NCBI GenBank assembly: GCA_016933055.1
Contig: JAFGBS010000028.1
Span: 150,001-182,000 of the forward strand
Direction of reading: 5' to 3'
Length of the DNA: 32,000 nucleotides
From: Promethearchaeota archaeon
Lineage (GTDB): Archaea > Asgardarchaeota > Lokiarchaeia > Sigyniarchaeales > Promethearchaeaceae
The notes below the pieces were generated by a model. That model saw only the letters and a program-made list of their open reading frames with translations, was not told the DNA's origin and made no database searches. Positions 2,668 through 30,574 of this stretch are shown here, in pieces. Position 1 is the stretch's first letter. Each line of letters begins with the position of its first letter. A program made the translations under genes and the position numbers.

Positions 2668-3531
2668 CTATAACTCTTCTACGTACCCTTCATTGGGTAA
2701 AATATCACATGGCTCGGAAAGGTCTATTCCATGTCCTTTTGTGAACATTTGCCGAAATGTAGCAATGAATCGAGCTGCGTCCGCCCCATCAATCACGTTA
2801 TGGTCTATGCTAAAACAGGCATGGAGAAATTCTCGATTCTTTAGCTCACCATTAATGAATCGCGGTTGCCAATCCGTTCCTCCAACTTGAAAACTGACAA
2901 CGTGTGGAGTCACTGCAATAGGATTACCTCCTTCTTGCAAAAACATTCCAATTGATGTTAATCCAATTGTTCCATTAAACTGTTTTTTCTGATGAGGGTT
3001 TCTCATTGCTTTTTTTAATAAGATTCTTCGTAGCCATCCTGGCATCTTGGTGAACATCTTTACCCTTCGGGCTTGTTTCTTTTTTTTATCATCATATTGG
3101 AGCCCTTTTGCTTTCCGAGTCTGTGCATTCCGAATTTCTTTGTGAATCTCTTTCCAATGTTTTTTTTGAGCTGCTCGAATAGTATAAGCGGTTGGTATCG
3201 GTCGTTCATACCCTTCGAACTGTCTTTCAACGATTGCGACAATATCAACATCTTCAAATATAATGATTTTCTTACGTCCTTTCATGTATGCATTTATATG
3301 GGGGTGTTCTTTGATTGCTTGCCCCAGTAAATATGCTATATACCCCGTAAAACTGTAGGGTTTACCATATTCATCTAAATGGGAGCGAAAATAGTTCCGA
3401 ACTTCTGTTACATCAATTACTCCTATTGCCGAGATATTATTCTTATTTCTACCCAAGCTAATAAAATCTATCTCAGCTTGTTTAGTTTTCGTGATGTTGC
3501 GAACTTCATACTTATAGTTGTATTTTCTCAT
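2668..3531 (-). CDS. 2-oxoacid dehydrogenase E2-type acyltransferase, catalytic domain only (paralog 1)
   Basis: GTIGLTSIGMF (cf. GTFTISNLG) and SIDHNVIDGADAARF (cf. DHRxxDG). No lipoyl or subunit-binding domain. ATG 3531 (MRKYNY) preferred over the track start at 3585. Confidence 0.85.
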   Translation of the reverse strand: MRKYNYKYEVRNITKTKQAEIDFISLGRNKNNISAIGVIDVTEVRNYFRSHLDEYGKPYSFTGYIAYLLGQAIKEHPHINAYMKGRKKIIIFEDVDIVAIVERQFEGYERPIPTAYTIRAAQKKHWKEIHKEIRNAQTRKAKGLQYDDKKKKQARRVKMFTKMPGWLRRILLKKAMRNPHQKKQFNGTIGLTSIGMFLQEGGNPIAVTPHVVSFQVGGTDWQPRFINGELKNREFLHACFSIDHNVIDGADAARFIATFRQMFTKGHGIDLSEPCDILPNEGYVEEL

Positions 3532-3632
3532 TACGTTCACCAGAAAAAGCAATAAATTTTGATCTGATAACGTTGGGGTATCCAATAAAAACCAATTGGT
3601 TATTATTCACATAATGTTTTGAAGGAGTGGTA

Positions 3633-3642
3633 AGGTTTTTTT
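3633..3642 (+). promoter_or_regulatory. putative BRE/TATA-position element AAGGTTTTTT (paralog 2)
   Basis: T-run 3636-3642 lies 23-29 nt before ATG 3665; the same motif and spacing recur before paralog 3. Confidence 0.4.
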
Positions 3643-3664
3643 ACTGAAAATCGTTTTTCGTTTT

Positions 3665-4492
3665 ATGGCAAAATCAAAACCTTCAGCAACTTTCAAGTCG
3701 ATAACTAAAGCACGAGGAGTGATTATTGATTTATTAGAACATGGGTGGGCTGCTCACCGAATTCATGCTTATGGAGAAGAAGATGTTGATGATGCAATTC
3801 ATCGCCTAAAGGTTATCTCTGAGAAATTGGGTAGAAAAATTTCGGTTACAGCATTTTTTGTTACTTGTTGGGCGAGTACAGTAGCGAATCACAAGATTCT
3901 CCAAGCTTATCGCATCAATAAAAGGAATATGATCATATTTGATGAAGTTGATTGCGTGGTCAATATAGAGAAGGATATTGAAGGTAGAAAAGTACCTACG
4001 AGTTATATTGTGCGAAATGCAGACAAAAAGAATGTTATAGAAATTTCAGACGAAATTCGAGAGGCACAACAATCTAAATCGGATTCTGCTGTTAGCACAT
4101 CCAGTAAGAATAAACAATCTAAAGCTCGATTTCTGCTTAAATTTCCACGATTTATGCGGAAATTCTTTGTAAAACGAATGGTAAAAAATCCGTACATGAA
4201 AAAGGAATTATATGGTACTATCGGATTATCATCTATTGGTATGTTTACAATGGGAACAGGAAGCGCAATCTCATTAACAGTTCATGCTTCTAGCATAATA
4301 ATTGGGGGTATAGGAAAAAGACCTTGGGTGGTAAATGATAAAGTAGTACCAAGGTATGCTTATACAGGTACTATTACAATGGACCACGATTTAGTAGATG
4401 GGGGACCAGCTGCACGTGCAATAGCTGAATTTCGTACTAAAACACGGACAGCTTATGGATTGGATGAGATAGAGAAAAAATTGGGATTGTAA
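3665..4492 (+). CDS. E2-type acyltransferase, catalytic domain only (paralog 2)
   Basis: GTIGLSSIGMF and TMDHDLVDGGPAARAI; 275 aa, no lipoyl domain. Confidence 0.85.
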   Translation: MAKSKPSATFKSITKARGVIIDLLEHGWAAHRIHAYGEEDVDDAIHRLKVISEKLGRKISVTAFFVTCWASTVANHKILQAYRINKRNMIIFDEVDCVVNIEKDIEGRKVPTSYIVRNADKKNVIEISDEIREAQQSKSDSAVSTSSKNKQSKARFLLKFPRFMRKFFVKRMVKNPYMKKELYGTIGLSSIGMFTMGTGSAISLTVHASSIIIGGIGKRPWVVNDKVVPRYAYTGTITMDHDLVDGGPAARAIAEFRTKTRTAYGLDEIEKKLGL

Positions 4493-4574
4493 CTAAAACC
4501 ATTGACCCTTATATTCAGTTTACTTCTTTTTTTTACATATTTGATACAGCAACCTCATTTTTATCGAACATAAA

Positions 4575-4585
4575 AAGGTTTTTTT
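4575..4585 (+). promoter_or_regulatory. putative BRE/TATA-position element AAGGTTTTTTT (paralog 3)
   Basis: T-run 4579-4585 lies 24-30 nt before ATG 4609. Confidence 0.4.
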
Positions 4586-4608
4586 CCGACTAGCTTTTTT
4601 GTTTGTAT

Positions 4609-5442
4609 ATGAAGAAGTCCGATGTTCCCGTCAAAATTCTAAAAATGAAACCAGCAAGGAAAGTGATAATAGATCTTCTACATTTAGGATTAAAAGTATC
4701 CCGAATTCATGCCTATGGAGAAGATGATTGTACCGAAGCTTTACAACGCTTAAATGTTATTAGTGAGAAATTGGGACGAAAAATCTCATTTACCGCTTAT
4801 CTTGCAACTTGTTGGGCTTCTACAATTTATAATCACAAAATTATGCACGCATATCGAAGAAGAAATAAAATTGTTTTATTTGAGGACGTAGATGTTGCAT
4901 GCGTTGTAGAACGAGATATTGTAGACAAGAAAGTCCCTACGAGTTATATCATTCGAGAAGCTCAAAACAAAAACGTAGTTCATATTTCGGATGAAATTCA
5001 AGAAGCAAAGCAATCTAAATCAGAAACCGCTGCCACATCAACAAAAAAACTGAAACAAAGCAAAGCTAGTTTGATTACACGATTACCCGGATTCATTCGA
5101 AGATTTATTCTCAAACACATGACCAAGAATCCATGGCTAAAAAAAGAGATATTCGGTACTGTAGGTCTTTCCTCAATAGGAATGTTTACGATGGGAAGCG
5201 GAAGCGCTATTCCCGTAACAGTGCATAGTTCAACATTTATCGTCGGAGGGATCGCGAAAAAACCTTGGGTAGTAGGGAATGAAATAAAAATACGAGATAT
5301 TATAACTGGCACTATTTCGATGGATCATGATCTAGTTGATGGCGGTCCTGCTGCACGAGCGATTGCCGAACTCAGAAATAAAATCCGGGAGTGTCACGGG
5401 TTAAATGCAATTGAAAAGGAATTAGGAATTCAATACGATTAA
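4609..5442 (+). CDS. E2-type acyltransferase, catalytic domain only (paralog 3)
   Basis: GTVGLSSIGMF and SMDHDLVDGGPAARAI; closely similar to paralog 2 along its length. ATG 4609 preferred over TTG 4603. Confidence 0.85.
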   Translation: MKKSDVPVKILKMKPARKVIIDLLHLGLKVSRIHAYGEDDCTEALQRLNVISEKLGRKISFTAYLATCWASTIYNHKIMHAYRRRNKIVLFEDVDVACVVERDIVDKKVPTSYIIREAQNKNVVHISDEIQEAKQSKSETAATSTKKLKQSKASLITRLPGFIRRFILKHMTKNPWLKKEIFGTVGLSSIGMFTMGSGSAIPVTVHSSTFIVGGIAKKPWVVGNEIKIRDIITGTISMDHDLVDGGPAARAIAELRNKIRECHGLNAIEKELGIQYD

Positions 5443-8470: not shown

Positions 8471-9772
8471 TTAATGGTTCTGATGTTGTATATAATTAAT
8501 GATGAGATAGGTCTCTACAATTATGAAACTCACAATGTCAATATAAGTAACCAGAGCACAAATATTTAGCGGAAAAAGTGTCCCACTGATTATAATTCGT
8601 GCAAGATAACAAGTCATATAAAACGGAAGAAGGGAAATCAACCAAATTATTGATTTCTCTGGAAATGATCGTTGTTTAAATTTTCTAAATATTAATCCTT
8701 TCTGGTATAACGTGTACAGGGGTATGTCCAATAATAGAATTATGAGAATTCCCATCCATGTTTCCAACTCAAAACCAATTCCTAACGCTTCTAGTGCTCC
8801 GTTCAATCCCCCTCTCAGACTTTCTTGGATTCCAAAAAGAAATAGACCTAAATGTGCTATAAGATAAGTTAGAATTTTTCCCCCCATGGTGTTTTTAGGG
8901 TAATAAGGGAAATCAATATCTGCCGATTGGGGCTGGTTGCGAGTCTTTCGATAGTAAAATATCATTACTAAGATCCCTATGACGAATCCGGTAAAATATT
9001 CCCATAAGGACCAGAACGGTAATCCCCAATCCAAATTATTACGGCCTATAGCTTGCCACACATCTGCTATACTGAATCCGATTCCGAAAAAAATCATTAT
9101 CATCAGAGAATCCCCAACAAATTTACACTCTTTTCCTGCAAATCCCAAATAAATCAAAACTGGAATAATAGCAAACGCTACTGCAAAATTATCCCTCATC
9201 GCTTTATAATTACGAGCAGTTCCATCCAGACCATTTATATACACTTGGTAGGTAAGAGGTGAAATGTGGGGGATTATGGCACGTGCAATTAATATCCCTA
9301 ATACCCAACTTGCAATGAAAATCACCAAACTTAACCAAAAATCATAGAGAGTATATTGATTTTTCCTACTAAACATATATCCTCCCAGAAATAACGCAGC
9401 TAATGTACTCCATGCAATACCACATACAAAAAGCCAGAAATACCCATACCACCAAGGCACTATAATGCCAAATCTATCATACACTCCCGGATATACCCAA
9501 GGAATACCTGCTTGTCCTACTAAAGTTCCCCATCCCCTCCGGAGTACTCGAAATAGAATTACAATCACACCAAAGATATATGGATTGAATTTTTTTCGTG
9601 GACCAAACACAATTGACAAAAAGAGTAATAATAGAAGCATCGCAACAGTAGGATCACTTGTTCCAGATCCCCGAATGTGCCATCCTATACCAAATAGGAG
9701 CGCTCCAATTATTGTGATCCCGAATTTATTTCTCACTCCAATAATCGATTTTGATTCAAAGGATTTTTCCAT
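8471..9772 (-). CDS. uncharacterised polytopic membrane protein
   Basis: Ten or more hydrophobic segments, with conserved-looking motifs GWHIRG, WYGYFWLF and WSLWEYFTGF. ATG 9772 (MEKSF) preferred over 9808. Confidence 0.7.
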   Translation of the reverse strand: MEKSFESKSIIGVRNKFGITIIGALLFGIGWHIRGSGTSDPTVAMLLLLLFLSIVFGPRKKFNPYIFGVIVILFRVLRRGWGTLVGQAGIPWVYPGVYDRFGIIVPWWYGYFWLFVCGIAWSTLAALFLGGYMFSRKNQYTLYDFWLSLVIFIASWVLGILIARAIIPHISPLTYQVYINGLDGTARNYKAMRDNFAVAFAIIPVLIYLGFAGKECKFVGDSLMIMIFFGIGFSIADVWQAIGRNNLDWGLPFWSLWEYFTGFVIGILVMIFYYRKTRNQPQSADIDFPYYPKNTMGGKILTYLIAHLGLFLFGIQESLRGGLNGALEALGIGFELETWMGILIILLLDIPLYTLYQKGLIFRKFKQRSFPEKSIIWLISLLPFYMTCYLARIIISGTLFPLNICALVTYIDIVSFIIVETYLIINYIQHQNH

Positions 9773-9809
9773 ATATTCTTTTGTTAGTTTGATATATAAA
9801 AAAACCACT

Positions 9810-12366: not shown

Positions 12367-15300
12367 ATGTATCATTTTCAGGAATATCAAGATATCGAAA
12401 TAACGGTTTACAATCCCTTTATCTGCACTTTAGTGGGGATAGTGAACTTGAATTTAGACAATAACATCGCTATATGCTCGTTAGAAGATGATTCTGGCAA
12501 CCGAATTGTCGGATTTTTCTATCAAAAATTCGCAGATCTGCTTTCTGATCATCACTTACAAACCCGGATACCTTTCAAAATAAGTATAGTCGCAGGTGAT
12601 ATTAAAAATCAAGGAGAAAAACAGTTCTTCGAAGTATATCAATGTATATTTGAGAAGGATTTTTTAATAAATAGCAGTTTATTGGCATCACACAGTTATT
12701 GTGAAATGTCCACTTATCTTAATAGTCATATCCATGTACATTCTCCCTTTAATCCATCCCAGATTTTCGGTATCGTTTACCATGATTATTTAATGTATTT
12801 ATTTGAAGATCAAGAATTATTGAAATTACCCATAGAAGATCCGAAAATCTCTCTAAAGGTTAGAATCGCATTTCAACAAGCAATATTTCGCAACTGGAAA
12901 CCTCTTGCAACTTTTAATATTGATGAAAACCTCTATTTAGATTACTTTTTGACATATTTTGGTGAACGAGAAATAGAATTCATCAATTTTGAACTGAAAA
13001 AATTAAAACCATATGGTGATGACTGCTCCTTTCAAGCTGAGGTTATGGTTCGTTCGCGAAATCTGGGATTACAAGGGAGGGTTGATCGCATTTTATGGAA
13101 CAAGAATAAAAACTCGTTTATCTTATACGAAACAAAAACAGGTCGAACTTCTTTTTCATCGGAGAACACTGCAAAATTTCAATTAATGGCTTATTCTTTA
13201 ATTTTAAATGAGTACTATTCAAAACAACTAGAAGGCTTATTTCTTGAATACCCCAGAAATGATCTTCAAGATCGGTTAAAATTGATAGAATATGATGAGA
13301 AACAAATTGTTCGTTTAATAAATATGCGTAATCAAATTTGGGCAATTAGTATTGGTAAACGACCTGAAGAGGGACCGTTCAAGAGCTGTTCTTCTGAATG
13401 TTTTCAAAAAGATGTTTGTGCTTTTTATTGCTTGCGTTCTTTCTTAACAAAACATTGTATTGAATGTGACCGCTGCAATTATAATCCCATTCTGCTTCGA
13501 AAGGAGGATTTTGAAGAATTTCGTAGAATTAATGTGTACTATGATTGGTTTTACCAATTTTTAGAAATGGAATATCTGAATAATCAAGATTTATTATTAG
13601 AATTAGGGTTACCATCAAAAGATCGAGAATCTTTGGGAAATTGTTTTTCAAGAGTGGTAATAGCTGATTTACTACGGGAAATGAGTGAAAATGATGGAGA
13701 GACTAATTCAAATAAATTTTGGATCAAATTTGGTCGTGAAAACAATTATGACTCAGATTTTACGAATACCCGTATGGATTCTTCAGATTATATATTAATC
13801 ACACCGCAAAATTATCGTCCCCTCACCTTACAATCAATTCCTGGAATTATACATAATATTCAGAAGCACCATGTGATAGTAGAGGTTACTTTAGATTATT
13901 TCTCCCAAGTCTCAAATTACTCCAAAGATACAATATTTCGAATTGACATGATAACCTCAAATCGAATTATTAACAATGAAAAATCCGCTTTAGACGCTTT
14001 TCTTCGAATCCCATATCATAAAGGTTATGAAAATCTCAAACAAATTCGAAAATATTTAATCAATTTCAATATCAAACTTGCGGAAACATCAATACCTCTT
14101 AAGAAAGAAATTCAAGATAAATTAAAAAAAAAGCATTATAACACAGATCAAATCAGCGCAATACAAAAATCCCTATCCTTCGAGGATCTTCTCTTAATTC
14201 AAGGACCTCCTGGAACAGGAAAAACTACAGTAATAACAGAAATAGTACACCAATTAAACAGAAAGATGGAGCATATACCAAATTTTATAAAATCCCATAA
14301 ACCAAAAAAAGAGGAACAAAACAAAGAATTCAAGCGAAATAAAAATGAGAAGGATAAAAATCAAATTTACAATGAATCAACTAATCAAGTTCCGGATTTC
14401 GAGGTCGAAAATTACTACATACGAAAAAAGATTCTCATAACTGCTTATACTAACCGAGCTGTAGATACAATGGTGGAAATGCTCTTAAAAAAGTATCCAT
14501 CAATTGATATACTCCGCATTGGAGCAGAATTATCGGTGTCCAATTCGGTTAAACAATATTCTATAGATTTTAAATGTAAGAAGCAAGTAAAATTCGATGA
14601 CGGTCATTTATATACCGTGAATTCTTCGAAAAATGCTCATGATTTGATTAACAATGCTAGCATAATTGCAACTACATGCTTAGGTGCTAACTCAGTATTA
14701 TTACAAGATATAGAATTTGAATATGTGATAATTGACGAAGCAGGACAATTAATTGAACCTGCTGCACTTATACCAATATTAAAATCCAAACGCGTCATAT
14801 TAGTTGGAGATGATGCTCAACTACCTCCTATCTCGGTGAAAGAACAAAATCCATTGCTTAGCTCAGAATATTTTACTGAAAAAAAATATTTACATGGATT
14901 TGAAGGAACAATTCTTGACTATCAGCAAGGAAATAAAGATACTACTCAAATCATTGATAGTCGAAAACAAATATTCCTAAAAGAATTAGAGCAGTTAGGT
15001 ATCAATCCTACAGATACGTTAAGTATTTCACTATTCCAGCGATTGAAACGAATTTTTCAAAGAAGTGATTTTTATATTTTACTCACACATCAGTATCGGA
15101 TGCATAAATCTATCTGTAAATTCGTTTCCGATCAATTTTACGAATCAAAACTTGTACCAGGGGAAATTAATGGTACAAATATAGGCGATCAGTCGGTGTC
15201 TATTTTTTACAAAGCACATAACATAAAATTAAACGGGCATATTAAAGAAAATAATTTGTCAGTGATACCATTTTTAAAAATTTGGCAACCCCATTTACCT

Positions 15301-16032
15301 ATGATTTTTCTGGATACTAAATCTGTAAATGCATTTGATTCCAAACTAGATGAGAGATATGACGAGATGAGTTCCAGATTTAATGAAAAAGAAGCAGATT
15401 TCTTAGTTAAAACTGTCGCGTATTTATTACATTTACATCCAATCTGTCAACGTAATTCTTCCACATCCAGCAAAGAGTATGAATTAAAACAAGAAGATTT
15501 TAAGAGATTTCTTTCAAACATCGGCATAATAACTCCTTATCGAGCACAAGTTCGGAAAATTGGAGATTTATTATCTGACGCTTTTAGGGAGGACAAAACT
15601 ATTCAAAAACTCATCTCCAAGTTCCTTATCGTAGATACTGTGGATAAATTCCAAGGAAAAGAATGTGAAATAGTACTAATCAGTCTTGTTGATTCCAATC
15701 CTGATAAAAAATTAAGTGCACTGTATTCAGAACTTCGAAGAATGAACGTATCAATAACCCGTGCAAAAACTAAACTCATCGTGATAGGTAATTCGGATAT
15801 GTTTCAACGAACGACACCGAAAAAAACTCATTCAATTTTAGATTTCTTTATTTCTCCAACGTCCGTGTCTTATCATTCCAAAAATAAAGATAATCGTCCT
15901 CCAGAGAATAATTTAAAAAGCATTAAAAAAATTCACCAATTTTTTACTAATTTAGTGCAATATGTTCAAACACATAATGGCTACGTGTTATTGGACGAAA
16001 ACATGATAACTAGCATGGAACTGAAAGATTGA
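12367..16032 (+). CDS. dna2: Dna2-like nuclease/helicase (PD-(D/E)XK Fe-S nuclease + SF1B helicase)
   Basis: Nuclease GLQGRVD...YETKTG and QLMAY; Cys at SYCEM and CSSECFQKDVC. Helicase motifs QGPPGTGKT, AYTNRAVD, DEAGQ, VGDDAQLPP, QYRMH, ITPYRAQ, TVDKFQGKE and NVSITRAK. Confidence 0.85.
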   Translation: MYHFQEYQDIEITVYNPFICTLVGIVNLNLDNNIAICSLEDDSGNRIVGFFYQKFADLLSDHHLQTRIPFKISIVAGDIKNQGEKQFFEVYQCIFEKDFLINSSLLASHSYCEMSTYLNSHIHVHSPFNPSQIFGIVYHDYLMYLFEDQELLKLPIEDPKISLKVRIAFQQAIFRNWKPLATFNIDENLYLDYFLTYFGEREIEFINFELKKLKPYGDDCSFQAEVMVRSRNLGLQGRVDRILWNKNKNSFILYETKTGRTSFSSENTAKFQLMAYSLILNEYYSKQLEGLFLEYPRNDLQDRLKLIEYDEKQIVRLINMRNQIWAISIGKRPEEGPFKSCSSECFQKDVCAFYCLRSFLTKHCIECDRCNYNPILLRKEDFEEFRRINVYYDWFYQFLEMEYLNNQDLLLELGLPSKDRESLGNCFSRVVIADLLREMSENDGETNSNKFWIKFGRENNYDSDFTNTRMDSSDYILITPQNYRPLTLQSIPGIIHNIQKHHVIVEVTLDYFSQVSNYSKDTIFRIDMITSNRIINNEKSALDAFLRIPYHKGYENLKQIRKYLINFNIKLAETSIPLKKEIQDKLKKKHYNTDQISAIQKSLSFEDLLLIQGPPGTGKTTVITEIVHQLNRKMEHIPNFIKSHKPKKEEQNKEFKRNKNEKDKNQIYNESTNQVPDFEVENYYIRKKILITAYTNRAVDTMVEMLLKKYPSIDILRIGAELSVSNSVKQYSIDFKCKKQVKFDDGHLYTVNSSKNAHDLINNASIIATTCLGANSVLLQDIEFEYVIIDEAGQLIEPAALIPILKSKRVILVGDDAQLPPISVKEQNPLLSSEYFTEKKYLHGFEGTILDYQQGNKDTTQIIDSRKQIFLKELEQLGINPTDTLSISLFQRLKRIFQRSDFYILLTHQYRMHKSICKFVSDQFYESKLVPGEINGTNIGDQSVSIFYKAHNIKLNGHIKENNLSVIPFLKIWQPHLPMIFLDTKSVNAFDSKLDERYDEMSSRFNEKEADFLVKTVAYLLHLHPICQRNSSTSSKEYELKQEDFKRFLSNIGIITPYRAQVRKIGDLLSDAFREDKTIQKLISKFLIVDTVDKFQGKECEIVLISLVDSNPDKKLSALYSELRRMNVSITRAKTKLIVIGNSDMFQRTTPKKTHSILDFFISPTSVSYHSKNKDNRPPENNLKSIKKIHQFFTNLVQYVQTHNGYVLLDENMITSMELKD

Positions 16033-16112
16033 GTCACAAACTAAATCCTAGTGTTGTGGTCGTTTTTCAGCAAAAACATAAAAGATAGGAATAATATTAT
16101 CTATTTAAAGAC

Positions 16113-16760
16113 ATGGTAATCGAAGGAACCCGAGAGCCTTTGCCATCTTCAATCCAAAATCTGTTATTAGATTCAGAGAATAGAATCCTCCAAACGGGAT
16201 TTCATAAAGGTTCAATAATCACAAAACTTAAAGATGGTCAGAATTCTATTGTATTCTCTGATACCATAGATATATCGGAAGATCTGTCAAAAATCGATGG
16301 TTTAAAAGTAGGTGTTAATGGGGACCTTGCAATTGCAGAAAAAGGAGTTTTTGAAATTTCCAAATCCAAAATTTTGTATTCCGTGAAAATGGATAAGGAA
16401 ATTGTTAAGACTTTTGATAAAGCTCGGTTTAATACCAGTTTTCCATATATTACAGCGTTTTTGCATACCAGCTGTTTGTATAACTACTCTCAGAAACATC
16501 CAATAAACCATCTAGATTTTGTTAGAGGAGAAATTTTAAGTCATCCGGTAGCTTTATTATATCACAATAGTATTTTAGTTGGAGATAGAGCCGTAATCGA
16601 TGATCAAGGATATCCCGTTTTTTATAATGCGTTTCTTATTCAACGATCCGAGTCTTCTCAACCTGAGGAATTGATTTCATTTACATATGAACCGATTTTT
16701 CGAATGAATATTCATTTTATCAAATGGATTATCATTTTGGGAGTCGAAATGCTGAAGTGA
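16113..16760 (+). CDS. hypothetical protein (215 aa)
   Basis: Open frame with ATG; its TGA stop overlaps an in-frame GTG of the next gene (GTGA at 16757-16760). No recognised motif. Confidence 0.7.
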   Translation: MVIEGTREPLPSSIQNLLLDSENRILQTGFHKGSIITKLKDGQNSIVFSDTIDISEDLSKIDGLKVGVNGDLAIAEKGVFEISKSKILYSVKMDKEIVKTFDKARFNTSFPYITAFLHTSCLYNYSQKHPINHLDFVRGEILSHPVALLYHNSILVGDRAVIDDQGYPVFYNAFLIQRSESSQPEELISFTYEPIFRMNIHFIKWIIILGVEMLK

Positions 16761-18046
16761 CCTTCGATTCTGCATATAAGGATAAGTTTGTTAAAAAGCT
16801 CTCTTTTTTATTGCCACCTTTTGATCGTTTTGTTGCAAAAGTAGAACTTCCAGAGCAGGAACCCGTGTTTCCCTCCCGTGAGAATGAAATAAGAAAGATT
16901 GCGGATATGATAAAGGGCAACCGATCCATGATTATTCCTGTAATTAGCGAAGTAGGTGCAGGAAAAACTCATTTTTTATGGGGAATTTACAACAGTTTTG
17001 ATGTAGAGGCTATCACTACGTTTCTTTCTTTTCCGCGCTCGAAAGAAAAATTTTTGTATTATCTTTATTCAAATTTTATCAAGCAATTCGGTCAAAATAA
17101 CCTAAGAGATTTTTCTCAGAATTTTGGAGAAAAATTTGGAGCAGCGGAGAGATTATATGGACTATTTCGCACTCAAAATACAGAACGAATCGTAATATCT
17201 GCAATTGATCAATTAAAAGATGAATACGATCCAGAGTGCTTAGAACAATGTGTTAATGTGACTATTCAGCATCTTATGGACAACGATAAGTCTCAAATTG
17301 CAGAACGCTGGTTGTTAGGACAAGTCATGGATGTCGAAGACTTGTTTCTCATCAATGCCACCGATGACCTTTCCAATGAGTGTATGGCAAAAACCATGTT
17401 GAAATTGATTATTGAAAATCATAATGAGGAAATTGTCCTTTTATTCGATGATCTCGATAAAGTAGCCAAGGAATTTGACAGTTCTACGGTATTTAATGAA
17501 ACTGGTGTAGATGTGAATTGGGCTGGAGATCTAGAGGAAGTATGCGAAAAAAACAGTCCAGATTCAGGAGAGTTTGCCCTTCTTGAGGAATTAATCGCAT
17601 TGATGAAAGACATCAATAATTTAAAAATTGTGGTAACACTGGAACAAGAAGAATCGGGACGATTTATAGAATGGCTAAAGGATAAACAAGATAAATGCTC
17701 AATATATATCGCAGATCCCATTCAATTGGGTCCTATTTCACTCAAAGATGCATATCATCTCTATTTTTCCCGCTTAAAAAATTTCTGCCTTAAATATAAC
17801 ATCAATCACCCCACCGCCGATCGTTTTTTTAAACCTGAGAAAGATTTGGAAGAATATTTAGATATATATAGGGAAGATCTCTATTTTCCACTGAATCAAG
17901 AAATATTAGAGGTAATTTATGGGATCACTTTTGGAAATCCTCGTCAAATTTTGAAGAATTTTAAGCGAATTTTTGATGCAATTATTTTCGAGGAAATTCG
18001 AGTTGAGGATATTAAAACGGAATACAAACGTTTTTTGCGCAAATAG
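16724..18046 (+). CDS. P-loop AAA+-type ATPase (BrxD/DUF2791-like)
   Basis: Walker A variant SEVGAGKTH, Walker B IVLLFDDLD, AERWLLG and C-terminal GNPRQIL. Alternative start GTG 16757. The family label is tentative. Confidence 0.7.
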   Translation: MDYHFGSRNAEVTFDSAYKDKFVKKLSFLLPPFDRFVAKVELPEQEPVFPSRENEIRKIADMIKGNRSMIIPVISEVGAGKTHFLWGIYNSFDVEAITTFLSFPRSKEKFLYYLYSNFIKQFGQNNLRDFSQNFGEKFGAAERLYGLFRTQNTERIVISAIDQLKDEYDPECLEQCVNVTIQHLMDNDKSQIAERWLLGQVMDVEDLFLINATDDLSNECMAKTMLKLIIENHNEEIVLLFDDLDKVAKEFDSSTVFNETGVDVNWAGDLEEVCEKNSPDSGEFALLEELIALMKDINNLKIVVTLEQEESGRFIEWLKDKQDKCSIYIADPIQLGPISLKDAYHLYFSRLKNFCLKYNINHPTADRFFKPEKDLEEYLDIYREDLYFPLNQEILEVIYGITFGNPRQILKNFKRIFDAIIFEEIRVEDIKTEYKRFLRK

Positions 18047-21795: not shown

Positions 21796-23325
21796 TTAGA
21801 AAATTGATTTTAACTGATCTGGTATTACTTCATTAGGGGTTGGAACTAATAGGAATGGTTCAACCTTACATTTTTCGCATTTTTGTCCCATTAACAAATA
21901 AAATTTGAATCCATTATGTTCTTTTGAGGTGACTAATTGAACATCGATTAGTTTAGCAGTGTCATCGCATCCACATGGAATTTTAAATGCTTCAAAATCA
22001 CTAAATCGTTTCTTGGGATCATTTAATTTTTTGAAGGTGGACTCCGCAAGCAGATTTTGTACATTAGTGTTGTTTTCGATAATTAGTGGAGTATAATCAC
22101 TCAGCTGCAAAACTCCCTCCTCGTTGTATGTAACATTTCTCATTACGCTGAACAAATCTACTTCCATGTTTTCCTCAGATTTTGCTTCCATAGGAATTGG
22201 GTCGATGAAAATATCAGTTAATTCCTCTGGCACATTCATATTGGGCAGAGGAGTGAGAACAAATGGATTGGTTTTACATTTCTCACATTTCTTCCCAATC
22301 ATTAAGTAGAAGTGAAATTCTTTGTAAGATTTTGGTGTTACTTTTTGGATTTCACCTATCTTTACTGGAGAACCGCAATCACAGTGAATTGCATTAAACT
22401 CTTCAATATTAGGTATGATTTTATCGATGTCTTCGATTCTGTCAAATAAGGAATTTTCCAAAAGCGATTCTACAATGGGTTTGAATCCTAATTGCACAAA
22501 ATCTATATCATCTGTGAGCAATTGCCCATTTTCATCATATTTGGGATCTTTTATGATTAAAAATAGGTCATTTTCATCATCTTCACTTAAATCCATAGTG
22601 GAAACTGCTGTAGGTTTACCAACTCCTCCCGTTTTTATGGTTTGCGGTGTTTCAAATGGTTCTATACCTTCAGGATACTCAAATCGAAATATATATTGGA
22701 CTTGTTCTTCTTGTATGTTTTCCCGAACGAGAGAAAGACTGGTATAATCGTTAGACATTAATGGAAATTCTAGAACTTGTAAAGGAAACTGTTCCTCAAG
22801 CATATAATCTCGTGCATCATCAAGTAGAATCTGAATAAATGTTTTTATCTTATTTGCTTGATCATAGATCTCTTGCTGCAATTCTTCCCGATGCATGTAC
22901 TTGAACTCATTCCACTTCTTTTTCATATATTTCTTCAAGAAATTAGGCAGAAAACAGACTGGTAATATTAACAAAAAGGAATAGATTTGATACGGACGTA
23001 GGGTAGGTATGTAAAATATAAAAATCGTTCCAATCAAGGCTGCCATAATGACAAGATTTATACGATTGAACCTTTTTAAATAAGGAGCTCGAATATTATG
23101 TTGTTTTGCAATTTCTTCTGAACGTTCTTTAATAGTAAATGCAGCTTCTCTAATATTTAGTCGTTCATATTCTGCTCTTAATTTGGCTATTCGATCCTTT
23201 TCCGTAGGATGTGTCTTTTCAACGTTCAAAAAATCTTCCGTGTGGTTTGTTATATATTGATCGTAAATCTTCTGTTGGAAGATAAAATCAAAACTTTCCT
23301 CTGAAATCCAATCTAGAAATCTCAC
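21796..23325 (-). CDS. hypothetical membrane protein with 2 TM helices and a tandemly duplicated CxC...CxxC domain
   Basis: Two hydrophobic helices, then two ~125-aa repeats each containing CxC and KCEKC. The reading frame stays open upstream to 23475 without a canonical start. Confidence 0.8.
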   Translation of the reverse strand: MRFLDWISEESFDFIFQQKIYDQYITNHTEDFLNVEKTHPTEKDRIAKLRAEYERLNIREAAFTIKERSEEIAKQHNIRAPYLKRFNRINLVIMAALIGTIFIFYIPTLRPYQIYSFLLILPVCFLPNFLKKYMKKKWNEFKYMHREELQQEIYDQANKIKTFIQILLDDARDYMLEEQFPLQVLEFPLMSNDYTSLSLVRENIQEEQVQYIFRFEYPEGIEPFETPQTIKTGGVGKPTAVSTMDLSEDDENDLFLIIKDPKYDENGQLLTDDIDFVQLGFKPIVESLLENSLFDRIEDIDKIIPNIEEFNAIHCDCGSPVKIGEIQKVTPKSYKEFHFYLMIGKKCEKCKTNPFVLTPLPNMNVPEELTDIFIDPIPMEAKSEENMEVDLFSVMRNVTYNEEGVLQLSDYTPLIIENNTNVQNLLAESTFKKLNDPKKRFSDFEAFKIPCGCDDTAKLIDVQLVTSKEHNGFKFYLLMGQKCEKCKVEPFLLVPTPNEVIPDQLKSIF

Positions 23326-28215: not shown

Positions 28216-29145
28216 ATGTCTAATAAAAAGCAAACAGCTGTAATTGGTGCTGGCAGTTTTGGTAAAGCACATGCACGTAATTACAATGATATATCGGATC
28301 TTATCGCTATATGCGACTCAAACATGGAATCGGCAAAGAATGCCGCACTAGCATACGAAGATGTTCGAGTCTATAATGATGTTGATAAAATGCTAAAAGA
28401 AGAAAAGATCGATGCGATCAGCATAGTTACTCCCCCTTCTGTCATCCCAGCACTAACTGAGAAGTGTGCCCAAAAAGGAATAAACGTGTTAATGGAAAAG
28501 CCTATGGGCTTAAAATATGCGGATGTGGAAGCACTTACTGCGTATAATTCCGTTCGAATTCATCCTGGTTTTATTGAGTTATATAATCCCGTTGTTGATG
28601 AAGCAAAACAATATTTGTCTCGTATTGGAAATATCTTAACAATTAGTTCCAAGCGTATTGGATTGTTTCCACGAAGATATTGGGGTATGGGAGTGGTTCT
28701 AGACTTGACTGTACACGATGTATACCTACAAAGGGATTTTTTAGGGGATATTCAATCCGTTAAAAGCATGGTTCGATATTTTCATGATAGTCAATTTGAA
28801 GATGCCGCTTATGTATTGTTAGATTTCGGAGATGCGAAAGGTTTAATAGAATCTAATTGGCTAACTCCGACGAAATATCGTAAAATGTTCATTTCAGGTG
28901 AAAATGGTACAATAGAAGTCGATTTCATTAGACAATACCTCACCTTTCTTGAGGGAAAAGACCTAACCAAAGCGAAACCTGAGATATGGGAAACAAAAAT
29001 TAATTATCTTCGACCAAAAGAACCTTTAAGAGAAGAACTCATGGATTTTTTATATTCAGATATTCCCAAAGTAACATTGGAGAACCATGGATTAAAAGCG
29101 TTAAAAGTGGTATTGGATGTTTTAAAAGAAGCAAAGAAAAAATAA
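28216..29145 (+). CDS. Gfo/Idh/MocA-family oxidoreductase (UDP-GlcNAc 3-dehydrogenase-like)
   Basis: VIGAGSFGKAH, LMEKPM, GFIELYNP, GVVLDLTVHD and SNWLTP.K.R. Confidence 0.85.
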   Translation: MSNKKQTAVIGAGSFGKAHARNYNDISDLIAICDSNMESAKNAALAYEDVRVYNDVDKMLKEEKIDAISIVTPPSVIPALTEKCAQKGINVLMEKPMGLKYADVEALTAYNSVRIHPGFIELYNPVVDEAKQYLSRIGNILTISSKRIGLFPRRYWGMGVVLDLTVHDVYLQRDFLGDIQSVKSMVRYFHDSQFEDAAYVLLDFGDAKGLIESNWLTPTKYRKMFISGENGTIEVDFIRQYLTFLEGKDLTKAKPEIWETKINYLRPKEPLREELMDFLYSDIPKVTLENHGLKALKVVLDVLKEAKKK

Positions 29146-29374: not shown

Positions 29375-30574
29375 CTATTTTTTTTGCTTTCGAAGAAATG
29401 CAAGCATGGGCTTCTTTTCTCGTTGTATACCTTGAACTTGTGCTTCTTCAATTCCAAAATAGGTATCTATCAAGTCCTTTGCACCTTCAAAAAGAGACAT
29501 ATCCCCCGTCCAATTTGAAATATAATTGCCAAATTTCTCTTCTATTTCTGGAGTCAATTTTTCTAATTTATAACGATAAATTTCTAAATTCTCAGTTACT
29601 ATCAAAATAACGATTACATACCGGCTTTTCTCAAAAATCATCTTATAGTTACCTTGATCGATTAAATCTACATTTTCTTCCGATCCTGTGATTTCTTTAA
29701 TAATATCTTGTATACCCGAGAAGGCAGCCGCAACTAAATCTGGATGAGTAGAGGATTTTAAGGTGCGTTCTTCATAAAATCGTCTATTATATAGTTCTAT
29801 TCCATTATAAGACACGATATGGATTTCCAATAAATAATTTGACCAGTTTAATTCCATAATACTTGGGAATTCTTGGAATGAAAATTGAATTATAAAAATA
29901 CTTGCTATAACAATGCCATCTCCTGCTAAAAGTCGGATGTACAAGATATCGTTAGTGTTTCCAAATGTATTAGTAAATGGTTCAATAAACAGATTTAATA
30001 TAAAATCTGTCTTCAAAATGTTCCCTAAGAAAAGGAGAATAAACCCTAGGATGAAAATAACTAACATGTCTACTAGCTTAGGGTGATGTTCAACTCTTGA
30101 TTGAATTGCCGCATAAATTATTCCTAATGTTGCAAAAAATGCGACAAATATAAATAATGTTAAATAATTTGAGGGAAAATTATAGAAAAAAATCGCACAT
30201 AAAGAAATTAGACTTATAATTATAGTATTGATATACCCACTTTTCAAAATTCGTTCAATCTGAATGGATATATATACTAATCCAAGTAGTCCCAGCGCAT
30301 TTGCTACATTATTTAGATATGCTCGATCAATAAGCTCGGGTATATGATCTTGATAAAAATCTGCATACATCTTAACCGCATCGAATAAAAATTGACCAAG
30401 AAAGAAAAAACCCCATGCGAGGTTCATTTCCATTGGTTCTTTTTTCTTCTTTTTATGTATTGCTTCTACAAAGAAACGCATACTATAAAAAAGGTAAAAA
30501 GCTCCTATTATCGACTCTAAACCTATAAGTAACTCTCGTAATGTTCTTTTTTGCATTAGGATATCGTCGATCAT
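29375..30574 (-). CDS. 7-TM membrane protein with C-terminal longin-like domain
   Basis: Seven hydrophobic segments in the first ~245 aa. The C-terminus LEIHIVSYNGIELY...DLVAAAFSGIQDIIKEIT...IDQGNYKMIFEK...ILIV...LEKLTPEIEEKF follows the beta-beta-alpha-beta-beta-beta-alpha-alpha longin pattern. Confidence 0.65.
   Translation of the reverse strand: MIDDILMQKRTLRELLIGLESIIGAFYLFYSMRFFVEAIHKKKKKEPMEMNLAWGFFFLGQFLFDAVKMYADFYQDHIPELIDRAYLNNVANALGLLGLVYISIQIERILKSGYINTIIISLISLCAIFFYNFPSNYLTLFIFVAFFATLGIIYAAIQSRVEHHPKLVDMLVIFILGFILLFLGNILKTDFILNLFIEPFTNTFGNTNDILYIRLLAGDGIVIASIFIIQFSFQEFPSIMELNWSNYLLEIHIVSYNGIELYNRRFYEERTLKSSTHPDLVAAAFSGIQDIIKEITGSEENVDLIDQGNYKMIFEKSRYVIVILIVTENLEIYRYKLEKLTPEIEEKFGNYISNWTGDMSLFEGAKDLIDTYFGIEEAQVQGIQREKKPMLAFLRKQKK

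Follow-up and report, generated by a model that had tools for sequence, protein, structure and literature searches.

Most known dimers of longin or roadblock domains bind GTPases, and longin dimers are platforms, not catalysts, which may serve a GEF, a GAP or neither (PMC3747258). The canonical dimer surface of these domains is formed by α1 and β3, and the two-helix face of the dimer binds GTPases (PMC3747258, PMC3199381). We analyzed a window of 32,000 nucleotides from a Promethearchaeota archaeon (positions 150,001–182,000 of contig JAFGBS010000028.1), in which one gene encodes a protein of seven predicted transmembrane (TM) helices and a C-terminal longin domain.

The longin fold is shared with TRAPP Bet5/Trs23 (TRAPPC1/C4), Mon1–Ccz1, Fuzzy–Inturned (CPLANE) and BLOC-3 (Z 10–14). 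Dimerization through α1 and β3, as in the platforms of the TRAPP and Mon1–Ccz1 type (PMC3747258), is predicted here as well. The TRAPP-type platforms are soluble heterodimers with extra subunits, whereas a homodimer fused to a seven-helix (7TM) domain is predicted for our protein. The identity to the TRAPP-type longins is 10–14%, and the docking of a GTPase is putative in our case. MglB, the partner of MglA in Thermus and Myxococcus, also resembles our protein as a homodimeric platform from one gene (predicted here) and in the core fold (Z 10.6, 107 aligned residues). The platform helix of MglB carries small residues four apart (A68/A72), like residues 283 and 287 here in a presumed register; replacement of A68/A72 with Arg lowers the MglA binding tenfold (PMC3199381). 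Unlike the 7TM-longin protein, MglB is of the circularly permuted roadblock form, is soluble and is encoded beside its GTPase.

Soluble and GTPase-fused longin/roadblock proteins of Asgard archaea (PMC10933270; PDB entry 8yqg) belong to the same lineage and have the same fold. They and the NPRL2-like longin fusions of Asgard archaea (10.1101/2020.10.19.343400) also share domain shuffling with signalling modules, and Liu et al. describe longin fusions to two-component domains. The relevant passages of these two sources (PMC10933270, 10.1101/2020.10.19.343400) describe no seven-helix membrane fusion. The sensors of the HisKA_7TM (PF16927) and 7TMR-DISM_7TM (PF07695) families share the N-out 7TM domain with an output domain right behind it in the cytoplasm, and the 7TM of our family also heads Asgard histidine kinases. 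Their output is a kinase or a cyclase in place of the longin, and no member of our family passes the Pfam cut-off. The actinobacterial conservon CvnA-D already unites, within prokaryotes, a sensor in the membrane with a protein of the roadblock type and a small GTPase (PMC13343842). The concept is shared; however, the conservon consists of four separate operon-encoded proteins with a histidine-kinase-like sensor, whereas in our protein the putative sensor shares a single chain with the platform, and any GTPase would be encoded apart from it. By analogy, the layout would work like a prokaryotic 7TM sensor fused to a platform of the MglB or TRAPP type.

A literature search of paper texts gave no account of a 7TM-longin fusion. 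A passage of a 2026 preprint names '7TM proteins' among the Asgard eukaryotic-signature families of Eme 2023 or Liu 2021, and thus the family may already be contained in a supplementary table of one of these studies. What the locus offers is a model that can be tested, rather than a new system. A self-assembling longin dimer in a membrane protein, as predicted here, is a minimal single-gene candidate for bringing small GTPases to the membrane, and such a protein possibly ties GTPases to an outside cue.

Architecture and topology

The features are summarized in Table 1. The AlphaFold2 (AF2) model of the 399-residue protein has a mean pLDDT of 90.1 and a pTM of 0.85, and contains seven long helices (residues 11–43, 49–73, 84–110, 115–129, 135–161, 165–188 and 207–235). 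Seven peaks are also observed in the family-averaged hydropathy, and TM1–TM3 are weaker in the hydropathy of the single sequence. The seven hydrophobic segments read from the DNA in the initial annotation are thus reproduced. The family means of Lys plus Arg are 0.2 at the N-terminus, 3.7 in loop 1, 1.0 in loop 2, 2.5 in loop 3, 0.2 in loop 4, 1.6 in loop 5 and 0.6 in loop 6. This charge distribution points to the N-out/C-in orientation, by which the longin domain is placed in the cytoplasm, as had been proposed. Conservation in the family is highest in the linker helix after TM7: Trp244 is invariant, Glu241 is conserved in 91% and Pro237 in 82%. The C-terminal tail ends in a basic, aromatic and possibly amphipathic segment, which is restricted to this subfamily. 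According to the models and the alignments, seven TM helices in the N-out/C-in orientation are almost certainly joined through the conserved linker helix to the longin domain.

Table 1. Features of the 7TM-longin gene and its product (positions in the window).
Feature	Residues	Position	Strand	Remarks
7TM-longin gene		29375–30574	minus	399-residue ORF, ATG start
Seven-helix membrane domain	11–235	29870–30544	minus	Helices arranged as in GPCRs; predicted N-out/C-in; without Pfam match
TM1	11–43	30446–30544	minus	Outer half, with residues 73–74 (DFY motif, end of TM2), is the predicted membrane dimer interface
Linker helix after TM7	236–247	29834–29869	minus	Family motif P-S-x-x-E-L-x-W
Cytoplasmic longin domain	248–375	29450–29833	minus	From models and structure matches
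Longin helix α1	278–296	29687–29743	minus	DLxxxxxSxIxxxxxE motif and predicted dimer stripe
C-terminal tail	376–399	29378–29449	minus	Low model confidence

The longin domain

A domain of longin pattern had been located at about 29845–29440 (residues 244–379), and the model places the longin domain there. The DLxxxxxSxIxxxxxE helix of the initial annotation corresponds to Asp279–Glu294 in α1. The best structure match is the TRAPP subunit 2j3t_D (Z 13.7, r.m.s. difference 2.7, 124 aligned residues), and Sec22b (Z 13.4, 2.7, 121 aligned residues) and Fuzzy (Z 12.6; 11.8 for the domain folded alone) are close to it. Folded alone, the domain aligns over its whole length with Fuzzy, Sec22, TRAPP and VAMP7. 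The secondary structure assigned by DSSP in two models is that of a longin, and two C-terminal helices in the model set the domain apart from a roadblock. The Z scores of the roadblocks (MglB and the MK-D1 roadblocks) differ from those of the longins by no more than about 1; their chains align from about their own residue 25, stop at about residue 350 of the model and miss the last helix. Such a partial alignment is expected from the circular permutation of the roadblock relative to the longin (PMC3747258).

The Pfam scan of the 399-residue protein gave no real match. Weak matches to the longin clan are present across the 7TM-longin members, a further likeness to the TRAPP-type platforms: ten of 71 match Sybindin (best E 2.4e-4), six match Fuz_longin_1 and four match Intu_longin_1. 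The search of PDB sequences with the family profile gave weak rows only (TRAPPC1, E 0.04), and Foldseek gave nothing at an E-value of 0.001 or better. Judging from the models, the cytoplasmic domain is a longin. Neither a fold other than a longin/profilin-like one nor an extracellular location, either of which would contradict the initial annotation, was found for it.

Positions 283 and 287 of α1 are both Gly, Ala or Ser in 89% of the family. The same small pair is present in about 20 of the 23 longins of the source genome, including soluble ones, and is thus not specific to the 7TM fusion.

Predicted homodimer

Two copies of residues 1–377 were modeled together, with three controls. The homodimer score is 0.59, against 0.00 for the best of the three controls. 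Of 30 solved homodimers, 20 reach the mark, as does one of 23 single chains; these counts are only rough with the alignment used. The runs share at least 97% of the contacts, and the pLDDT of the partner is at least 77. Besides the membrane contact listed in Table 1, in which the DFY motif is conserved, the interface consists of α1 (276–298) and β3 (300–310) of the longin, and both parts form together in one symmetric dimer model. The stripe on α1 comprises residues 280, 281, 284, 285, 288 and 291–296. Residues 283 and 287 lie outside the interface, and a helical wheel would place them on an exposed stripe beside the partner helix.

The 14 TM interface positions are somewhat more conserved than random sets from the TM domain (p about 0.02). 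In the longin part of the interface, conservation does not exceed that of the remaining longin residues (p 0.34). The pass of the homodimer may stem in part from the solved longin dimers (TRAPP, Mon1–Ccz1 and the Loki longin dimer 8yqg); to our knowledge, no solved template exists for the TM1 contact. In the models, the protein is predicted to pair with itself through TM1–TM1 and the canonical α1/β3 interface of the longin.

Coevolution was also tried for orienting the longin relative to the membrane domain, and was rejected. With 123 sequences (effective number 98), the signal was mostly noise. The top pair, 53–342, is unconvincing: its joint counts are spread widely, with the clade's own Ala–Pro pair among them.

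Proposed mechanism and the GTPase link

We tentatively prefer a reading in which the protein is a membrane sensor, dimerizes and offers a longin platform to a small GTPase. The first step is practically assured on the models: seven TM helices are in the N-out/C-in orientation, and the conserved linker helix would couple the bundle to the longin. Secondly, two copies would probably pair through TM1 and the TM2 end in the membrane and through α1/β3 of the longin. Thirdly, by analogy with known platforms, the two-helix face of the dimer, which would point toward the cytoplasm, may quite possibly dock one of the small GTPases, about 50 of which are encoded in the source genome, or a longin–GTPase fusion; the docked GTPase would thereby gain a membrane address. 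Fourthly, and more doubtfully, a ligand in a putative polar pocket of the outer half would shift the dimer and modulate either GTPase docking or nucleotide state. This step could be GEF-like, GAP-like or one of recruitment only. The initial annotation had proposed a GEF architecture; this role finds no support, because longin dimers are platforms that serve a GEF, a GAP or neither (PMC3747258).

A wider proposal is rather unlikely to hold in full. It would make the family a widespread group of ligand-gated seven-helix receptors of Asgard archaea, in which dimerization builds a longin platform recruiting and switching Rab/Arf-like GTPases at the membrane. If true, the product of a lone gene like the present one would act as a homodimer and those of tandem pairs as heterodimers, and the family would provide a one-component switch from receptor to small GTPase for which no counterpart is described.

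A Rab-like GTPase gene is located 7.2 kb upstream of the 7TM-longin gene, just outside the window, and its synteny is limited to close relatives (two). It overlaps by four bases with a 425-residue gene, and this pair (L026:8486–10311; G000:C2:186485-188310) is syntenic in L021 and L022. The 425-residue product has a degenerate KaiC-like ATPase N-terminus and a C-terminal domain without assignment. As 19.5% of the ORFs in the source genome have a GTPase within 7.2 kb, and as the Rab-like gene is coupled to the KaiC-like gene, it was rejected as evidence for a partner. A GTPase gene within 1.5 kb was found at one of about 40 short family loci, compared with a background of 5.7%. A specific partner for the small-GTPase switch of the initial annotation is therefore not supported by the neighbouring genes, among which GTPases are not enriched above background. 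According to the relevant passages of PMC10933270, the small GTPases of Asgard archaea, which number in the dozens, generally lie outside operons with longin or roadblock genes, so that the regulators are hard to match.

Indirect support for a GTPase link comes from relatives. In two genomes, genes for a small longin, a double-7TM protein of 500–520 residues and a Rab-like GTPase are tightly packed and co-oriented (L073:3591–6058 and L074:1577–4063). These double-7TM proteins match the 7TM profile at 21–22 bits (controls at most 4.6), and in L074 a second Rab-like gene is located 1.1 kb upstream of the unit.

Distribution of the modules and a possible static role

The full-length profile recovers 1376 clusters at 50% identity, many of them through the longin alone, and has matches in 268 of 301 Asgard genomes. 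In the search for the 7TM module, the profile of the 7TM alone gave matches in 68 of 121. The atlas neighbours of the protein are 93–100% archaeal, and a named homologue (79% identical) is from a Promethearchaeota archaeon, in agreement with the Asgard origin assumed at first. The 7TM-longin layout is real and common in Asgard archaea.

The gene belongs to a narrow clade of 13 sequences (FastTree support 0.998), which occurs at close identity in the same genus only and at 34% identity in one other genus of the family. Tandem pairs are frequent among members elsewhere (11 of 46 loci, with some double counts), whereas the clade genes are unpaired wherever the flanks were read. Because it is unpaired and predicted to be a homodimer, this copy can be tested more easily than the paired genes. 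A second member in the source genome (C17:102059-103159) is distant and unlinked.

Both modules are shuffled. Among the top family matches, the same longin subfamily is found on about 16 proteins with 10–12 TM segments, five of which have MFS_1 above the cut-off, and on about 13 large single-pass ectodomain proteins. About 20 longins of this kind occur in varied settings in the source genome. Since it also tails MFS-type transporters and single-pass proteins, the longin is a generic module, that is, a general tail of membrane proteins in Asgard archaea and not specific to receptors. The 7TM module is found with the longin, alone, doubled, or before a histidine kinase, an Rce1-like CAAX protease or a zinc-ribbon-like domain. 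A domain-alignment search for longer 7TM fusions gave no matches, which is weak evidence, and the genome searches did find fusions.

This shuffling favours a static anchor or sorting tag, in which the generic longin tail would dimerize or cluster proteins or pass them on to partners resembling coats or adaptors, while the 7TM carries out a function of its own and sends the tail no signal. SNARE and AP-complex longins match our domain as well as GEF longins do in the structure comparison, which fits the same reading. On the other hand, the linker helix and Glu107 rank near the top of the family in conservation, which fits a fixed coupling between the 7TM and the longin. The kinase fusion and the polar residues specific to the clade, both described below, point to sensing. 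We consider the static tag somewhat unlikely, and continue with the dimeric sensor.

The 7TM domain as a possible sensor

The 7TM profile matches the N-terminus of a histidine kinase at 38 bits, whereas reversed or locally shuffled controls reach at most 0.2 bits, and HisKA is present in 75 of the 108 relatives of the matched 7TM histidine kinase. This fusion is the best evidence that the seven-helix bundle can act as a sensor. HisKA_7TM is not among the Pfam matches of the members, and its atlas feature score of 0.81 is a lead only; hhalign against six Asgard HisKA_7TM domains gave a probability of 1.6% with a shallow template, and one stand-alone 7TM relative matches it at an E-value of 1.5e-4, under the cut-off. 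PF07695 is weakly matched in six of 68 members (best E 4e-4), none above the Pfam cut-off.

Polar residues at mid-membrane or in the outer half are kept in the narrow clade (Glu20, Gln61, Asp65, Lys68, Asn88, Asn89, Asn185, Arg214 and Asp219). Outside the clade, a polar residue is found at position 61 in 3%, at 88 in 14%, at 68 in 19% and at 185 in 22%. These residues would fit a predicted subfamily-specific pocket; as the clade members are close kin, their conservation is inflated. Because a related 7TM heads histidine kinases and because the clade keeps the polar residues, a sensor role is suggested for the 7TM domain. The receptor-like protein of the initial annotation therefore survives in its sensor part, by inference from the kinases, and not in the longin tail, which is not receptor-specific.

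The output of such a sensor might be other than a GTPase. The longin could pair with a soluble longin–winged-helix protein or a similar adaptor and act on transcription or two-component signalling. In five genomes, stand-alone 7TM relatives are convergent to genes of about 200 residues for a longin plus a tail, NPRL2-like longins are fused to two-component domains in the passages on Asgard archaea of 10.1101/2020.10.19.343400, and histidine kinases use the 7TM. However, the dimer surface of the longin is already taken up in the homodimer model, the convergent neighbours are not co-transcribed, and most known longin/roadblock dimers bind GTPases (PMC3747258). An output other than a GTPase is unlikely, and the platform for a small GTPase is retained as the preferred reading.

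Relation to GPCRs and other seven-helix folds

All seven helices of the TM domain can be superposed on those of GPCRs of several classes, including adhesion receptors and classes A and C (Z 10.5–12.8, r.m.s. difference about 4, 7–13% identity). Like eukaryotic GPCRs, it shows the seven-helix arrangement, the N-out/C-in orientation and a short helix after TM7, which resembles helix 8. Glu107 at the inner end of TM3 is Glu in 83% of the family and is followed by Arg (29%) or Lys (25%), with no Tyr; in the family sequences, it is the sole echo of the D/E-R-Y motif. These features would suit a common ancestor with eukaryotic GPCRs and a longin that catalyzes nucleotide exchange. However, equivalent scores are obtained for AdipoR1 (Z 13.3) and for a GPCR-like fold designed de novo (Z 12.7), and the identities among the fold matches are 4–14%. 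Z scores under about 13 are common among helical bundles. The class A set of D/E-R-Y in TM3, CWxP in TM6, NPxxY in TM7 and a disulfide between TM3 and ECL2 is absent: the TM domain has no NPxxY, no full D/E-R-Y and no Cys in more than 25% at any position; GPCR Pfam families are not among the member matches, although kinship is still compatible with that absence. Seven TM helices in a GPCR-like, N-out/C-in bundle are therefore found, with Z scores tied with those of non-GPCR folds and no sequence link. Moreover, a longin is fused on the cytoplasmic face, and longins are platforms and not catalysts (PMC3747258). The proto-GPCR of the initial annotation is thereby reduced to a likeness of fold, a genuine relative of GPCRs that carries its own GEF is very unlikely, and coupling to heterotrimeric G proteins is not implied.

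A PAQR/CREST-type membrane enzyme or a rhodopsin is extremely improbable: the fold also matches AdipoR, alkaline ceramidase and sodium-pump rhodopsins (Z 10–13) and the profile weakly matches channelrhodopsins (E about 1), but the three conserved Zn-binding His of such hydrolases are absent (no His exceeds 25% in residues 1–240 across the family), no retinal-binding Lys is present in residues 207–235 or conserved in TM7, and PAQRs have the opposite topology. By the motifs examined, the protein belongs to the longin family and is neither a class A GPCR nor a rhodopsin nor a PAQR.

Gene neighbourhood and related proteins

The start Met of the ORF matches the start of the homologues. The gene is divergent from metG (30824 onwards, plus strand) and convergent with a Gfo/Idh/MocA oxidoreductase gene (28216–29145, plus strand), and thus lies outside any operon. 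Both neighbours are kept in relatives. A scan for promoters and terminators gave chance-level results.

Several proteins with related modules were observed. MFS-type 12-TM proteins with a C-terminal longin (P0063, P0064, P0128, P0159 and L012) are often in tandem in Lokiarchaeial genomes and have a transceptor-like layout of transporter plus platform. A 751-residue protein with about 12 TM segments, a C-terminal longin and no Pfam match (L028:5419–7671; G000:C5:78415-80670) carries the longin of the source genome closest to that of the window protein. Two 7TM-longin proteins have C-terminal extensions of 151 residues (P0062) and 280 residues (P0125) with no clear Pfam match, and P0101 (2171 residues) contains three copies of the same longin domain and no TM segment. 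The stand-alone 7TM relatives convergent to the longin-plus-tail genes (L076–L078, L080 and L081) carry the DFY motif. The fusion of the 7TM module to the Rce1-like CAAX protease domain is found at L070:2947–4527, L071:2866–4575 and L072:2790–4325. A sister group of the 7TM histidine kinases (400 residues; L075:2665–3894 and P0213–P0265) has a domain with weak zinc-ribbon matches in place of the kinase.

Within the window, a 445-residue ORF without Pfam match is located at 8471–9808. A 509-residue protein at 21796–23325 has weak Pfam matches only, with a possible zinc ribbon near the C-terminus, and is conserved in L022 and L023. At 12367–18046, a 1221-residue Dna2-like nuclease-helicase is followed by a 215-residue gene without assignment and a 440-residue AAA/STAND-like ATPase. 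Three adjacent paralogues of the stand-alone catalytic domain of 2-oxoacid dehydrogenase acyltransferases (PF00198) are encoded at 2668–5442.
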